DNA from: Acidimicrobiia bacterium
Lineage (GTDB): Bacteria > Actinomycetota > Acidimicrobiia > Spongiisociales > JAENVV01
Direction of reading: 5' to 3'
DNA length: 20,000 bases
Assembly (NCBI GenBank): GCA_041577335.1
Contig: JBFGJH010000007.1
Coordinates: 54,858 to 74,857 of the forward strand
A model generated the notes under the pieces. The model saw only the letters and a list, made by a program, of their open reading frames with translations. It was not told the DNA's origin and did no database searches. This document shows, piece after piece, positions 8,252-12,518 of the stretch (its first letter is position 1; every line of letters begins with the position of its first letter). Position numbers and translations under genes: made by a program.

Positions 8252-8839
8252 ATGCTGTGGCTCCTCCTCGTCCTATTCATAGCGATCTTCATTGCCGTGC
8301 TGCGTGGTGGCCGGTTGGGCAACCTGGCGGAGATCGAACTGAAGCTGTGGTACCTGTTGGTGCTTGGCTTCGTCATGCAGGGCGTCACCGAATTCTTCCC
8401 AGATGATGCGTCCTGGTCACGGCCAGCTGGCGTGTCTTTGGTGCTGCTGTCCTATCTGCCGATCCTCGCCACGATTGCGGCCAACCGCGCCAAGCCGGGG
8501 ATGTGGCTGGCCGGAATCGGGATTCTGATGAACTTCACCGTCATCGCTTCCAACGGTGGCATGCCGGTGATGCAGGAAGCTGCCCAGGTGGCGGCGTCCA
8601 CCGACGCAATCGTCCTCGTCGCCGACCACAAGCACGTGGTGCTCGATGCGGCAACCCGCCTTCCCTTCCTGGCTGATGTGATTCCCCTTCGTTTTCTCGG
8701 GGAGGGCAACGTGTTGTCGCTGGGCGATGTGTTCCTGGCGGTCGGTCTCGGCCGGTTCCTCGAGGCTGAGCTCAGGCGTCCGGTCCGTTGGTTCAAACAC
8801 AGGGCGGCATCGGAATCAGGGAGCGCAGAACGCGGCTAG
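8252..8839 (+). CDS. DUF5317-family membrane protein
   Basis: RGGRLGNL N-terminus, G..MN..VIASNGGMPV, KH, TRLPFLADVIP, LSLGDV; recognised from memory of the family; extended -10 TGgTACGGT upstream. Confidence 0.8.
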   Translation: MLWLLLVLFIAIFIAVLRGGRLGNLAEIELKLWYLLVLGFVMQGVTEFFPDDASWSRPAGVSLVLLSYLPILATIAANRAKPGMWLAGIGILMNFTVIASNGGMPVMQEAAQVAASTDAIVLVADHKHVVLDAATRLPFLADVIPLRFLGEGNVLSLGDVFLAVGLGRFLEAELRRPVRWFKHRAASESGSAERG

Positions 8840-8849
8840 CGAGCAGGCT

Positions 8850-10079
8850 TCACCGAACTGCTGCTGTGTTGACAAGCCCCAAGTCGACGACCGTGCGCAC
8901 CGCCTCGACGACATCAGGGTCGTAGTCATAGGCAGCTCCCCGGTGCATCACCTCGAGGGCTTCGAGTGGTGAGAAACCCATCTCGTTGATTGCGTGGTCG
9001 AACGCGCTCGATGCCCTGATGACCTTCGAAGCAAGAGGAACGTTGGGATCCTTCTGCTCTCCAGGCCGACGATACGGTTGATGTTGGAGGCGAACGAGCG
9101 TGGCCACGTTGCTGAGGTAGCGGGCCTCGGAGATGATCTCGCTCCCCCAGCGCGCAATGTCATCTTCGCTGAACCCTGCTTTGAGAATGTTCGGCTCATT
9201 GAGGGTTATGCGGCCGATGTCATGCATGCGAGAGGCGTATTCGAGGTCCTGGATCTCGTGGGGGGTCATTCCGAGCTCTTGCCCGATCGCGACCGCCATG
9301 GCGGCAGTCCTATCCGAATGGCCGTCGGGCGATAGGCCGGCAACCTCGGGGATCCGCGACAGGGCTCGGATCGTCTGGTCGTAGGTGGATTGTGCCTCGG
9401 CGGTCCGCTGGAACGCTATGTAAGCGAATGCGAATGGAGGAAGAGCGACGAGGAGCGTCCACCAGCGAAGAGCGCTCCACGAGAATCCAGCCAGAGCGCC
9501 CACGATGTACAGGCTGAACGAGACAGGCCAGTCATCGAATGCCAGGATGGCCAGGTAACTGAGAGAGAGCCGGTCGCGGCCATACGAGGTCAACGCCCAT
9601 GCGCCCATCTCGAACACGAACCAGACGACCGCGGCGAGCGCAAACGCCACCAGCGGGCCCGACTCCCATCCTTGCATCGAGGCAGACAACCCGTCGAAGG
9701 TGAAGGCGTACAAGCCGGCACCGAGCGAATTGCGGATCGCCGCGCTGTCGATGGCGTGGCCTTCCCTGCCTCCAATTCGGGCGAGCATCCATCCGCCGAG
9801 ATAGCCGGCTGAGTACACGCAGAAGACGGCGGCGAGATCGGCTCCTCCGCCGCCGCCGACGACAACAGGCACTGCGACGGCCACGGCAAATGCGAAGGAC
9901 AGGCGATTGCCACTCTTGGCGGGTACCTCAAACAAGCTAGCGATCGCGAGGATCGTGGCCCACACGAGTATTCCACCGATTCCGTAGTCGGTCACGCCGA
10001 TCGACATGAAGAAGATCGAGACCATGCCTATGGCCCATAGGACCGGCTGAAGCTGATCGCGTGCAGAGATCTCAGCCAT
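8850..10079 (-). CDS. Membrane protein with a degenerate HD-GYP domain
   Basis: ~7-8 TM N-terminus; GHSDR and MHDIGR are retained, but HH..GYP is replaced by QHQPYRRPG and ADxFD by SSAFD; ends YDPDVVEA. Confidence 0.85.
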   Translation of the reverse strand: MAEISARDQLQPVLWAIGMVSIFFMSIGVTDYGIGGILVWATILAIASLFEVPAKSGNRLSFAFAVAVAVPVVVGGGGGADLAAVFCVYSAGYLGGWMLARIGGREGHAIDSAAIRNSLGAGLYAFTFDGLSASMQGWESGPLVAFALAAVVWFVFEMGAWALTSYGRDRLSLSYLAILAFDDWPVSFSLYIVGALAGFSWSALRWWTLLVALPPFAFAYIAFQRTAEAQSTYDQTIRALSRIPEVAGLSPDGHSDRTAAMAVAIGQELGMTPHEIQDLEYASRMHDIGRITLNEPNILKAGFSEDDIARWGSEIISEARYLSNVATLVRLQHQPYRRPGEQKDPNVPLASKVIRASSAFDHAINEMGFSPLEALEVMHRGAAYDYDPDVVEAVRTVVDLGLVNTAAVR

Positions 10080-11421
10080 GATGAGCCTCTATTCCCGCCC
10101 GTCCTTCGGCAACCATTCTCGCCAGGACATCCGAGTCCATCGACGGCGACCCATATCGCTCACCGGTGCGGGCAAGTCCACGTACCAACGCGTCGACGAC
10201 CTCGGGGTCGAACTGCGTCCCCGCATGGGAGCGCAGCTCTTGGAGTGCGTATTCTTGCGTCAGAGCCATCCGGTACGACCGGGTCGACGTCATTGCGTCG
10301 AACGAATCGGCGACGGCCAGGATGCAGGCCTCGGGCGACGGCGGCTCGCCGGCGGTGTGACCGGTGCCGCCATACCCCGTTCCGTCGTAACGTGAATGAT
10401 GGCCCGAGGCGATCTGAACCATCGGTCGGAGGAACTCCACCTCGGCGAGGATGTCCTCGACCATATGGGCGTGACGCTGCAGTTCTTCGTACTCGCCGTC
10501 ATCGAGCCGCCCGCGCTTGCGAATGAGTTCCCCGGGCACAGCCAGCTTGCCGACGTCGTGAATGAGGGCGGCCCAACGAAGCCTTTCCAGCGCGGTTCCT
10601 CGGTAACTGAGCTCCTCCCCGATGAGTTGCGCGAAATAGGCGACCCTCTCGGTATGGCCCCGGGTGTATAAGTCTTTGGCTTCCAACGCCTTGATGAAGC
10701 CGCGCAAGGTGCCTTCATGGGCATCGCGCAGTTTGCTATAGCTGCCTATCCCGACGTATCCGACGACGAGGAGGCCGAAGACCAACGGCAACACATTCGG
10801 CTCGACGTGATAGGTCGCTCCAACCAGCCCACCCATGAATCCCAGCAGAATCGAAGATGGAACCATCGACCCCATGCGAGACCACGGGCGGATATTCCTT
10901 TGCTGATAGATGACTCTGACAGCCAGGTTCACGCTGCCCAGGTTGACTGCGTTGTAGACCAAGCTCGCCAATGCCGCTCCCGAGGCAGCCAGGCCAAAAT
11001 CGCCGACCGTCCAGTTGCTCCATTCGTTGTTGGCCGGCAGAAACGGCTCGAGCACGAAGGCAGCAACCACGGCCGAGGTGACCAATTGACCGAGGTTCAC
11101 GAGTGGCACAACCACTCGCCTTTCCCTGAAATCAACTGGGCGGAACGGGGCGAGGAGCGCAATGACGCCGACTCCCAGCGCAGCTGTTTCGGGGCCGAAC
11201 GCCACCGCGGCCGCCAGTATGGCCATGACGCTGGGGCTGCTGATGAGGTGGTCGTTGATCTCGAACGATCGCCACTCGAGAAAGACCACCACGAGGGCGA
11301 ATGGCAGCCACGGCATCAACGGGGGGAACGAGTGTGTCAGGGCAGCAATGAGCAAGACCCCTAGACCTACCCCGGTGTAAAGGGCTGCGAGCAACACTCG
11401 TGCCCTTGTCTGCGCTTTCAA
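10072..11421 (-). CDS. Membrane-bound HD-GYP cyclic dinucleotide phosphodiesterase
   Basis: Multi-TM sensor region; KDLYTRGHTERV, IHDVGK, HHSRYDGTGYG, VADSFDAMTSTRSYR, GTQFDP; TTG start with GGAGGG RBS; overlaps the next gene by 8 nt. Confidence 0.9.
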   Translation of the reverse strand: MKAQTRARVLLAALYTGVGLGVLLIAALTHSFPPLMPWLPFALVVVFLEWRSFEINDHLISSPSVMAILAAAVAFGPETAALGVGVIALLAPFRPVDFRERRVVVPLVNLGQLVTSAVVAAFVLEPFLPANNEWSNWTVGDFGLAASGAALASLVYNAVNLGSVNLAVRVIYQQRNIRPWSRMGSMVPSSILLGFMGGLVGATYHVEPNVLPLVFGLLVVGYVGIGSYSKLRDAHEGTLRGFIKALEAKDLYTRGHTERVAYFAQLIGEELSYRGTALERLRWAALIHDVGKLAVPGELIRKRGRLDDGEYEELQRHAHMVEDILAEVEFLRPMVQIASGHHSRYDGTGYGGTGHTAGEPPSPEACILAVADSFDAMTSTRSYRMALTQEYALQELRSHAGTQFDPEVVDALVRGLARTGERYGSPSMDSDVLARMVAEGRAGIEAHHG

Positions 11422-11466
11422 TTTACTTGTCCCTCCGGAGGAAGAAGGGCTCAGACCGATTCTCGA

Positions 11467-11556
11467 TCAACCAACCTTGAAGCTTGCGCCGCCCGCAAAA
11501 AGCGCGGCAGCCAGGCTTGCTGTCACCGCCATGAGGCGGATCAGGCGTGTACGCAT
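11467..11556 (-). CDS. 29-aa signal-peptide-like small protein, putative signalling peptide precursor (not in ORF track)
   Basis: MRTRLIRLMAVTASLAAALFAGGASFKVG*; GGGTGAT anti-SD-complementary site 6 nt upstream; stop is 45 nt before the HD-GYP start on the same strand. Confidence 0.75.
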   Translation of the reverse strand: MRTRLIRLMAVTASLAAALFAGGASFKVG

Positions 11557-11623
11557 ATACGTATCACCCAGTTCTATGTGAATTGACCCGGTGTCTGTGC
11601 CCCGGGCCGGTTCGATTCGCTCC

Positions 11624-11804
11624 GCTGGGGATGGTGCGTGATTGGACTTTCGGCCTGAGCCCGTTCTCCTTCTCTCGTGAGAGAGACCTCAGAACGCGAC
11701 AGGCGCGCTCAGGACTCCCTCCCAACCGTACAACTACGGTGTCCGATCCAGAGCTCCCAGCCGCCCATTCTGCACGGACTCGGTATCAGCGCGATACCGG
11801 TGCA
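11624..11804. ncRNA. Candidate structured RNA (multi-stem), probably the leader of the peptide/HD-GYP operon; family unassigned
   Basis: Nested complementary segments: 11624-29/11756-61, 11640-47/11741-48, 11654-60/11707-13, 11662-67/11691-96, 11671-76/11681-86, 11725-30/11735-40, 11781-87/11793-99, 11771-75/11800-04. Confidence 0.55.
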
Positions 11805-11835
11805 TGTGCAAAGATAGCGACAACTAGGTACCGAC

Positions 11836-11863
11836 TCAACCACTCGACGTGGTTTCGCGATCA
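11836..11863 (+). promoter_or_regulatory. Possible sigma28-like promoter overlapped by a palindromic operator
   Basis: TCAAC-N15-CGCGATCA, with inverted repeat AACCAC-tcgac-GTGGTT at 11838-11854. Confidence 0.35.
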
Positions 11864-11891
11864 CCCAACCCAAGCTCAGAAGGGACTACAT

Positions 11892-12518
11892 TTGAGCCAG
11901 ATGAAGTACTCAGACCTGGAAGAGACGTTGTGTCGACTCACCACTGTCGACGCGGTGCGAGTGATCGGCGACAACGGTGCGATCTCTGAGGTCCACGTGC
12001 TCGCCTCACCGGGCAAGGTGCCGAAGCAGGTCGTCCGCGACGTGCAGTCTTTGGCGATGGCATCGTTCGGCATCTCGATCGACCGCCGGGTGGTGTCGGT
12101 CGTTCAGATCGAGAACGAGGAGCTCCTGCGCTCCGATCGTCCCGCTGTCACCGAGATCACCGAGACTCCCGACGGATCTCGTAGCAAGGTGAGCGTCTCT
12201 CTGACCTGGAAGAACGAACTGTTCGTCGGTGAGGCCGTCGGGCCGAGCGGCCCGACGAGTCGCGTGCGCCTGGTTGGTGAAGCGACCCTGGCTGCTCTGG
12301 AGCGATCGATCAGCGACGACACAGCATTCGCCCTGGCGTCGCTCGAATTGCCCCGTGTCGGGAGCCGAGATGTGGCAGTCGCCCAGATCGTGATGGTCTC
12401 GGGTGGCGAGGAGCGATTCCTGGTTGGGTGTGCCCTGGCGGGCGGGGATCCCGCCCAGGCGGCGGTGCGCAGCGTTCTCGACGCCGTCAACCGGGTTGTG
12501 CCGCAGCTGAAGAGATAG
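11892..12518 (+). CDS. Hypothetical protein with a C-terminal region resembling the LeuA/CimA regulatory (dimerisation) domain
   Basis: N-domain EVHVLASPGKVPKQVVRDVQS..IDRRVVSVVQ; C-domain ends LVGCA..GD..QAAVRSVLDAVNR; AGAAGGGA RBS before TTG 11892 (alternative ATG 11901). Confidence 0.75.
   Translation: MSQMKYSDLEETLCRLTTVDAVRVIGDNGAISEVHVLASPGKVPKQVVRDVQSLAMASFGISIDRRVVSVVQIENEELLRSDRPAVTEITETPDGSRSKVSVSLTWKNELFVGEAVGPSGPTSRVRLVGEATLAALERSISDDTAFALASLELPRVGSRDVAVAQIVMVSGGEERFLVGCALAGGDPAQAAVRSVLDAVNRVVPQLKR

Follow-up and report, generated by a model that had tools for sequence, protein, structure and literature searches.

The regulatory leader peptides known to date belong mainly to amino-acid operons, resistance genes and Sec/YidC components, and to our knowledge the input to membrane HD-GYP phosphodiesterases is largely unknown. 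Here we analyzed a stretch of 20,000 nucleotides (nt) from an Acidimicrobiia bacterium (contig JBFGJH010000007.1, positions 54,858 to 74,857; called the window hereafter, with positions counted from its first letter), which contains an upstream open reading frame (ORF) of 29 codons directly ahead of a gene for a membrane HD-GYP-type protein. Comparison with related genomes indicates that this unannotated ORF is a real gene under protein-level selection, conserved through an order of uncultured Acidimicrobiia. We favor, with a probability of roughly 0.5, the reading that it is a cis-acting leader ORF within a new RNA switch that would control translation of the HD gene.

Among described systems, the monitoring substrates are upstream ORFs that combine an N-terminal localisation signal with a conserved C-terminal arrest motif, and the account given in PMC10987492 includes some in which the stop codon occupies the A site of the stalled ribosome. 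Our locus resembles SecM, MifM, VemP, ApdA/ApcA/ApdP and the Sec/YidC classes in having a structured intergenic region beside the Shine-Dalgarno sequence (SD) of the downstream gene. The long form of the ORF, found at 83 of 107 loci, carries an N-terminal secretion or transmembrane segment as monitoring substrates do, and its C-terminus is conserved. In the SecM arrest core, given as ...GIRAGP in PMC7897499, an Arg stands two residues before the P-site Gly; the (K/R)-(I/V)-G-stop that ends our ORF, where arrest is putative, has the same spacing. The genes downstream of monitoring substrates are sec or yidC, whereas here an HD gene with an HD_5 domain follows. The searches for such substrates described in PMC7897499 require a spacer of >40 residues so that the signal exits the ribosomal tunnel, whereas our whole ORF has 26-29 codons; since there is no such spacer, force-dependent release would not be possible in the known way. 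Unlike in the monitoring substrates, the hydrophobic part is dispensable here in several lineages.

Leader peptides of the termination stage include TnaC of the tna operon, which acts at UGA with release factor 2 (RF2). PepNL of E. coli, as described in PMC11890864, blocks release at its own stop codon and likewise acts at UGA with RF2, whereas the upstream ORF studied here uses TGA, TAA and TAG. The likeness to both lies in a short leader ORF with conserved C-terminal residues directly before the stop codon and in downstream genes that are, or in our case would be, regulated; there is no sequence similarity, and our ORF differs in being enclosed by a long-range helix. According to PMC11260477, the metE and ppe2 B12 riboswitches of M. 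tuberculosis act through an upstream ORF whose translation sets downstream expression. These are also actinobacterial structured leaders with a short ORF, but they belong to a known aptamer class, whereas the leader described here has no match in Rfam 15 and the peptide sequence itself is conserved. As in leaders of the ermC/cat type and in riboswitches combined with an upstream ORF, we find a short ORF led by an SD within a conserved structure that touches the downstream ribosome-binding region.

MgrB-PhoQ, SafA and KdpF are small single-pass membrane regulators. They resemble our ORF in that a hydrophobic peptide of <50 amino acids (aa) is encoded beside a membrane sensor or enzyme, and differ in that the conserved core here is the C-terminal tail plus stop codon rather than a helix face, with the membrane segment lost repeatedly. 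The Phr peptides of Bacillus are pentapeptide signals cut from short precursors, which our ORF resembles in its shortness, its signal peptide and its C-terminal five-residue unit. It differs from them in having no pro-region, in the lack of a Rap/TPR receptor, Opp or dedicated exporter among the six neighbours scanned, and in the retention of the tail in ORFs that have no signal peptide.

The ORF lies on the minus strand at 11467..11556, with its ATG at 11556-11554 and a TGA at 11469-11467, and comprises 29 codons plus the stop, with the product MRTRLIRLMAVTASLAAALFAGGASFKVG. It exists as described in a first-pass annotation of this DNA, with an identical translation, and the GGGTGAT named there as its ribosome-binding site is present at 11563..11569 (minus strand), 6 nt 5′ of the ATG. 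In the alignment of relatives, AACTGGGTGAT or another SD variant is kept at this place. The position ahead of the HD genes also stood up to inspection: the HD gene starts with a TTG at 11421 on the same strand, 45 nt past the stop of the ORF. An ORF of 29 codons is by itself uninformative in GC-rich DNA, where 80 ORFs of at least 25 aa were found within 6 kb, and this one rises above chance because it is conserved across relatives. A profile search of the window's own genome returned a single copy of the peptide.

In order to assess its occurrence, we examined loci of relatives, all of which come from metagenome-assembled genomes; the counted rows include two (L014 and L016, where L numbers denote loci and G numbers genomes) from unpublished genomes (G036 and G025), and no conclusion hangs on them. 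In a first set, an orthologous HD gene was sought in 40 relatives, which gave 30 loci. A homologous ORF of 26-29 codons was found directly 5′ of the HD gene in 23 of the 30, and the remainder includes one ORF cut by a contig end and two loci without upstream DNA. Within the same order, 48 of 77 genomes matched the peptide profile. Of the 224 genomes from other orders, 24 gave weak matches (E 1e-6 to 0.009), chiefly over model positions 1-25, and these were assumed to be generic signal-peptide look-alikes. When a set of 80 loci was considered, the ORF was present in 35 of the 51 Acidimicrobiia-type loci and in none of the 29 loci of other phyla, where only the HD domain matched. At every one of the 53 loci where a full-length homologue has flanking DNA, the HD gene lies 31-101 nt downstream on the same strand, and this linkage holds for both second copies too. 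Finally, 107 loci with a full-length HD orthologue (some places having been fetched twice) were classified by what stands upstream: 83 have the long ORF, 18 have a tail-only ORF, at 5 the upstream DNA is <150 nt long, and 1 (L105) lacks either ORF. The tail-only class was defined as an ORF ending in (K/R)(I/V)(G/S/T/N/D)-stop no more than 200 nt upstream of the HD gene.

The substitution pattern is that of a coding sequence. Among 38 distinct cores of 78 nt, taken from the 53 loci, none has an in-frame stop, and stops occur in 34 and 7 of the 38 in the two shifted frames. Column entropy at codon positions 1, 2 and 3 is 1.05, 0.64 and 1.68, respectively. The pooled ratio of nonsynonymous to synonymous differences per site (pN/pS) is 0.51, with pS saturated at 0.71, and the corresponding rate ratio (dN/dS) has a median of 0.29 over 398 unsaturated pairs. 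The first-pass annotation had suggested codon-level conservation (dN/dS < 1) and syntenic equivalents as checks on the ORF, and both came out in its favor, with a homologue 5′ of the HD gene in 83 of the 107 loci and the frame open in all cores. Stop codons across 68 distinct loci are 23 TGA, 24 TAA and 21 TAG. The start codon is ATG, GTG or TTG except in L013/L008 and L019/L076, where a CTG stands behind a good SD and is probably a near-cognate start codon. When five of the peptides were scanned against Pfam and NCBIfam (E up to 10), the single match was DUF4148 at E 0.42, in one peptide.

We then analyzed the layout of the long form over 63 distinct peptides. Basic residues stand at positions 2, 4 and 7 of the n-region, with K or R in 55 of 63 at position 2 and in all 63 at position 7. 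Residues 8-24 are drawn exclusively from A, L, G, S, I, V, T, M and F; L15-A16 and A21-G22-x-A24 are near-invariant, and the hydrophobic stretch ends 5 residues short of the stop. At the proposed cleavage site, A24 (-1) is found in 63 of 63, position 22 (-3) is G in 60, A in 2 and S in 1, and position 25 (+1) is S, N, T, G, Q, D or E and never Pro. The C-terminal motif A-G-x-A-x-(F/L/I/M)-(K/R)-(I/V)-G directly precedes the stop. By region, pN/pS falls from 0.66 in the n-region through 0.58 in the h-region and 0.51 in the tail to 0.23 in AGxA. The K/R position is encoded by codons without any common base (AAG versus CGT). The tail is identical among the seven complete sequences of group g2, varies little within genera and is not hypervariable between species. 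The possibility that one face of a helix is conserved was rejected, as no helical periodicity of conservation was detected (power at 95-105 degrees, permutation p = 0.89). This layout fits a putative Sec signal peptide. The signal-peptide features noted in the first-pass annotation are shared by most members, with their n/h/c layout and -3/-1 residues, but not by the 18 tail-only loci, where the segment is absent. Its further comparisons to a lipobox and to a double-glycine site found no support: Cys is absent from all 63 peptides, Gly at position 23, and with it the GG pair at 22-23, occurs in just 2 of 63, and no ABC exporter is among the six neighbour proteins scanned.

The tail with its stop codon persists at those 18 loci whose ORF has no hydrophobic segment. 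In family f10, all six genomes, representing six genera, have a mini-ORF of 6-7 codons of the form M-x-W-(R/K)-(I/V)-G-stop located 28-42 nt upstream of the HD gene (M-T-W-R-I-G, M-S-W-R-V-G twice, M-D-C-W-R-I-G, (V)N-W-R-I-G and M-S-W-K-V-G). In these mini-ORFs the R/K residue is written with six codons (CGT, CGA, CGG, AGA, AGG and AAG) and Gly with three, and every stop codon is represented. An earlier short ORF that begins at the conserved SD ends at or beside the mini-ORF start in three of these genomes, where its stop either overlaps that start (ATGA or GTGA) or lies 3 nt upstream of it. The non-hydrophobic ORFs in part of family f4 end in NSRIG, NTKIG, SSRIG, GSKIG, SLKIG or a duplicated NTKIGNTKIG. 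The tail alone is retained in ORFs of 6-15 codons, and in L075, L081 and L022/L082 the 29-codon length, AGxA and the tail are kept while the N-terminal half is charged. On a tree of 82 HD proteins (FastTree, midpoint root, with L152 and L108 on long branches), the label hydrophobic or non-hydrophobic changes at least five times. The most widely retained part of the ORF is the C-terminal (K/R)-(I/V)-G plus stop. Since a six-residue or charged-body peptide is not a Sec precursor, the function shared by the whole family would have to reside in the C-terminus and the stop codon. Release of a pheromone, as the first-pass annotation had proposed, is hard to reconcile with this pattern as a general function, and the case cautions against taking even a flawless-looking signal peptide on a mini-ORF as a sign of secretion.

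Some further observations were made at these loci. In f10 (L029, L143, L144 and L146), the conserved SD GGUAGGUGA starts another short ORF, which reads M-W-x-T-V-G... in three genomes. A covarying hairpin (CCGAUACG/CGUAUCGG, CCGAUCCU/AGGAUCGG) has the 3′ codons of the f10 mini-ORF as its 3′ arm. In L024 (G035), the upstream ORF 85 nt 5′ of the HD gene, MAGNTKIGNTKIG, carries a tandem-duplicated five-residue tail. In L151 (G161:C1:777770-779080), the HD orthologue has two in-frame TGA codons and may be a broken gene or reflect an assembly error; an SSRIG-stop ORF is still found upstream of it.

The ORF is enclosed by a folded leader RNA of approximately 300 nt. About 200 nt of it lie 5′ of the ORF and carry covarying hairpins, both in the window (11585-11721, minus strand) and at the equivalent place in L002-L113. 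Its main element is a long-range helix of 17-30 base pairs (bp) in which a leader segment ending approximately 80-95 nt before the ORF start pairs with the stretch following the stop, in all lineages with the long ORF. The distance from the stop to the 3′ strand is 0-9 nt in 48 of 49 lineages and 16 nt in L023; in the window it is 8 nt. There, the 5′ strand GGAGAA.GGGCUCAGGCCGA (11650..11669, minus strand) and the 3′ strand UCGGUCUGAGCCC UUCUUC (11441..11459, minus strand) form 13 + 6 bp in the fold, with additional short pairings of 4 + 4 bp that extend to the final codons and the stop (UGGU at 11473-11470 and UGAU at 11469-11466). The helix sequence differs by lineage, as in L005 (...GGAGUCUGCUGCCCAAGC / GCUUGGGCAGCGGACCUUC...). 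The purine-rich part of the 5′ strand pairs with a pyrimidine tract beside the SD of the HD gene; in the window a CUCC tract is followed by GGAGGG (11436-11431; together 11431..11440, minus strand), the SD 9 nt 5′ of the TTG. Once the long-range helix forms, five of the six GGAGGG bases are unpaired in the window (the first G is paired), and an alternative local fold pairs the pyrimidine tract with this SD.

Support for covariation consists of per-sequence duplex tests. Over 49 lineages, the 5′ strand paired with its own partner at a mean of -38.4 kcal/mol versus -29.1 kcal/mol with the partners of other lineages, and the own partner ranked first in 11 of 49 and among the top four in 30 of 49. 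When each 3′ strand was shuffled 40 times, the median z was -3.7 and 74 of 1960 shuffles were as good. In L019 and L076, where an insert moves the stretch beyond the 32-nt test window, the helix was no better than shuffles. Separate minimum free energy (MFE) folds of the window and of L005 gave the same architecture (z = -2.9 and -2.7, respectively). The helix was also found in all 16 of the tail-only or charged-variant loci checked, and these carry AGCGRAGCG with the exception of L143.

A second conserved element is the near-invariant motif AGCG(G/A)AGCGGA, located 55-79 nt upstream of the ORF start. Its immediate 5′ flank pairs with the SD of the ORF itself and changes along with that SD. 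In the window, the flank CAUCCCCA (11633-11626) and the motif AGCGGAGCGAA (11626-11616) occupy 11616..11633 on the minus strand, according to alignments and the duplex test, and in the MFE fold the neighbourhood of the SD is held by CUGG (11571-11568) paired with CCAG (11628-11625). Across lineages the flank and SD combinations include CAUCCCCA with CUGGGUGAU, ACUCCA with CUGGAG, CACC with GGUG and AACCUCA with GAGGUU. The mean flank-SD duplex energy was -6.53 kcal/mol for own and -5.26 kcal/mol for other partners, and none of 10000 permutations was as low, a comparison that kinship among the sequences inflates. A consensus fold of 11 sequences likewise pairs flank and SD, as CUCCAG:CUGGAG. 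Between the motif and the SD lies a local hairpin, GGCCCGG / CCGGGUC (11585..11608, minus strand), a 7-bp helix of the MFE fold; relatives have a hairpin there too, with altered stem sequences (pair types AU/GC and CG/UA at two positions). Relatives additionally show a covarying GGUUUCC...GGGAA hairpin just 5′ of the purine-rich strand. Searches with Rfam 15 gave no match at the gathering score for the window, with two chance-level matches at E up to 10, and two chance-level matches for eight related loci, both elsewhere in the loci.

Sequences resembling the leader were also seen in public RNA libraries. Three estuary runs (X18, X19 and X20) each yielded one contig of 188-285 nt, 90-95% alike, on 11466-11789, a region that corresponds to the leader plus ORF of a relative; one contig ends at the stop codon of the ORF. 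We take these contigs as weak evidence, that is, as presence in RNA libraries and not as proof of transcription. Stretches of the 1.1-kb region without contig cover carry no evidential weight, and run X16 is probably DNA.

These features suggest a model in which the ORF acts in cis. The motif region would work as a switch, sensing a ligand or a protein and opening or closing the ribosome-binding site of the ORF. Ribosomes translating the ORF would then reach a stop at a constant position while carrying a defined nascent C-terminus, which may act inside the ribosome by slowing or arresting termination. A ribosome halted there would hold the top of the long-range helix open and alter access to the ribosome-binding site of the HD gene, so that either activation or repression could result. 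In most lineages, the released 29-mer, hydrophobic and resembling a signal anchor, may play a second role in the membrane.

Several observations weigh against this cis-acting reading. The near-equal use of the three stop codons (23, 24 and 21 of 68) means that an effect on termination would not be release-factor specific, unlike in TnaC or PepNL. A purely cis role leaves unexplained the strict limitation of residues 8-24 to hydrophobic or small types and the pN/pS of 0.23 in AGxA. In the energy model of the window, the SD of the HD gene is free and the pyrimidine tract is paired with the leader irrespective of whether a ribosome is on the ORF or at its stop, and of the 17 lineages folded, only about 7 showed a clear local hairpin covering the SD or start codon of the HD gene. 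As to the fold itself, RNAalifold predicted no pairs on a MAFFT alignment of 47 sequences, and hand-picked columns of this alignment were just 60-90% paired. Tail codons join the RNA pairing in f10 and in a subgroup of 11, so that a constraint on the RNA may add to the conservation of the tail. Lastly, DUF5317, a membrane protein encoded near the HD pair, was not found in any of the six genomes of f10, where the hydrophobic part has been lost, and this is a hint of a membrane partnership.

That hint leads to the alternative that survives best, which we consider possible if on the unlikely side: the product would be a trans-acting small membrane protein, a single helix with its N-terminus inside, working with the HD-GYP proteins and/or DUF5317 in the manner of MgrB, and the RNA would only coordinate its synthesis. 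The basic n-region and the strictly hydrophobic or small residues 8-24 of the 63 peptides are what such a protein would need, linkage to a membrane HD gene holds wherever flanking DNA exists, and most of the 37 relatives with DUF5317 encode it no more than about 2 kb from the HD gene. The missing DUF5317 in f10 (6 of 6 genomes) points the same way, as a single lineage event. However, the tail and stop are kept without the membrane segment after at least five switches, and DUF5317 is still present in some genomes that have the tail without that segment (G022, G024 and G035). The lack of helical-face periodicity (p = 0.89) also weighs against this alternative, and the segment is presumably just marginally hydrophobic, as judged from a hand sum of hydrophobicity values.

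It has also been proposed, in the first-pass annotation, that a short peptide is released. In its specific form, a Sec signal peptide would be cut after A-G-x-A by signal peptidase I and the resulting pentapeptide (SFKVG in the window) would be sensed by the membrane HD-GYP protein. The classic n/h/c layout, the invariant A24 with G, A or S at position 22 in 63 of 63, the lack of Pro at +1, the strong constraint on AGxA, which is the most constrained block (pN/pS 0.23), and the conservation of the last five residues as a class would all be expected under such processing. We nonetheless regard it as improbable, since AGxA and tail are retained behind charged N-terminal halves (L075, L081 and L022/L082), and the tail alone in ORFs of 6-15 codons, neither of which would be exportable by Sec. 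The small variation of the tail within genera (identical in the seven complete g2 sequences) is likewise unfavorable, as are the absence of Cys, the rarity of GG at 22-23 (2 of 63) and the lack of any peptide-export, Opp-type import or TPR receptor gene among the six neighbour genes scanned.

A further alternative is that the frame is untranslated and open only by virtue of a conserved structured non-coding RNA. This would account for the heavy structure (z = -2.9 and -2.7), for compensatory helices inside the ORF (pairs 216/240 and 222/234) and for the pairing of f10 tail codons with upstream arms. Variability in the order third > first > second codon position, the stops in 34 and 7 of 38 cores in shifted frames versus none in frame, the conserved SD and start codon, K/R codons that share no base (AAG versus CGT) and a length of 26-29 codons in all 23 first-set loci make it highly improbable. 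Readthrough of the stop codon, by which the ORF would become an N-terminal helix of the HD protein, is suggested by an in-frame arrangement with no further stop in the window, a congener and the g2 group, but with frame offsets distributed 26 / 26 / 16 over 68 loci, another stop in 4 of the 26 in-frame cases and all three stop codons in use, such a fusion can be excluded, with a residual probability that is practically nil.

Returning to the cis-acting leader ORF, a broader version of this reading can be formulated, which we consider speculative and rather unlikely. According to it, the loci would represent an undescribed class of leader-peptide RNA switches, extending across phyla, that gate membrane HD-GYP (and DUF5317) modules. 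The AGCGRAGCGGA core would sense a ligand or protein and open the ribosome-binding site of an ORF of tunnel length; A-G-x-A-x-hydrophobic-(K/R)-(I/V)-G would arrest termination at the mouth of the helix and in this way set how much of a cyclic-dinucleotide phosphodiesterase is translated; and the body of the peptide would add membrane targeting or a role in trans, making this a monitoring peptide outside Sec/YidC.

Irrespective of the mechanism, a small gene without a Pfam or NCBIfam match and an RNA without an Rfam match stand together before an HD enzyme throughout an order of abundant, uncultured aquatic and sediment Acidimicrobiia, and signatures of selection are clear on both the peptide and the RNA. 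If the cis-acting reading is true, the control of cyclic-dinucleotide signalling would gain an arrest-type motif and an RNA switch, both of them new, and a defined construct of approximately 330 nt would result.

The remaining features of the window concern the start of the leader and the neighbouring genes. The 5′ part of the leader forms a hairpin, GAGGGAG / CUCUCUC (11679..11721, minus strand), in the MFE fold of the window. Scans of 11350-11950 for sigma-70 promoters and intrinsic terminators found none. The HD gene (10072..11421, minus strand, TTG start at 11421) encodes a protein of 449 aa, in which the first approximately 235 aa are polytopic membrane sequence and residues 243-408 match HD_5 (Pfam, 7.9e-32). 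It contains the motif HD...HHSRYDGTGYG, that is, GYG in place of the GYP of the HHE..DG.GYP signature. A second membrane HD-like protein of 409 aa (8850..10079, minus strand), whose gene overlaps the stop of the first by 8 nt, has a weak HD_5 match (30 bits) without the HHE..DG.GYP motif and has probably degenerated into a non-catalytic paralogue that is paired with the first. The N-terminal membrane domains of the two proteins had no Pfam match at E up to 1.

The gene for the DUF5317 membrane protein, identified with Pfam, lies at 8252..8839 on the plus strand, convergent with the HD pair. DUF5317 is single-copy, and in most of the 37 relatives with this gene it stands beside the HD pair on the same contig; the six f10 genomes in which it was not found, those with the ORF of 6-7 codons, are 95-98% complete. 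On the other side of the leader, a divergent conserved gene for a protein of 205 aa (11901..12518, plus strand) shares with it an intergenic region of approximately 480 nt. Searches of Pfam, NCBIfam and PDB sequences gave no family match for this protein. The gene is kept in synteny in L005 (3281-3898) and, as tblastn fragments, at other loci, and its product might be the binder of the invariant motif.

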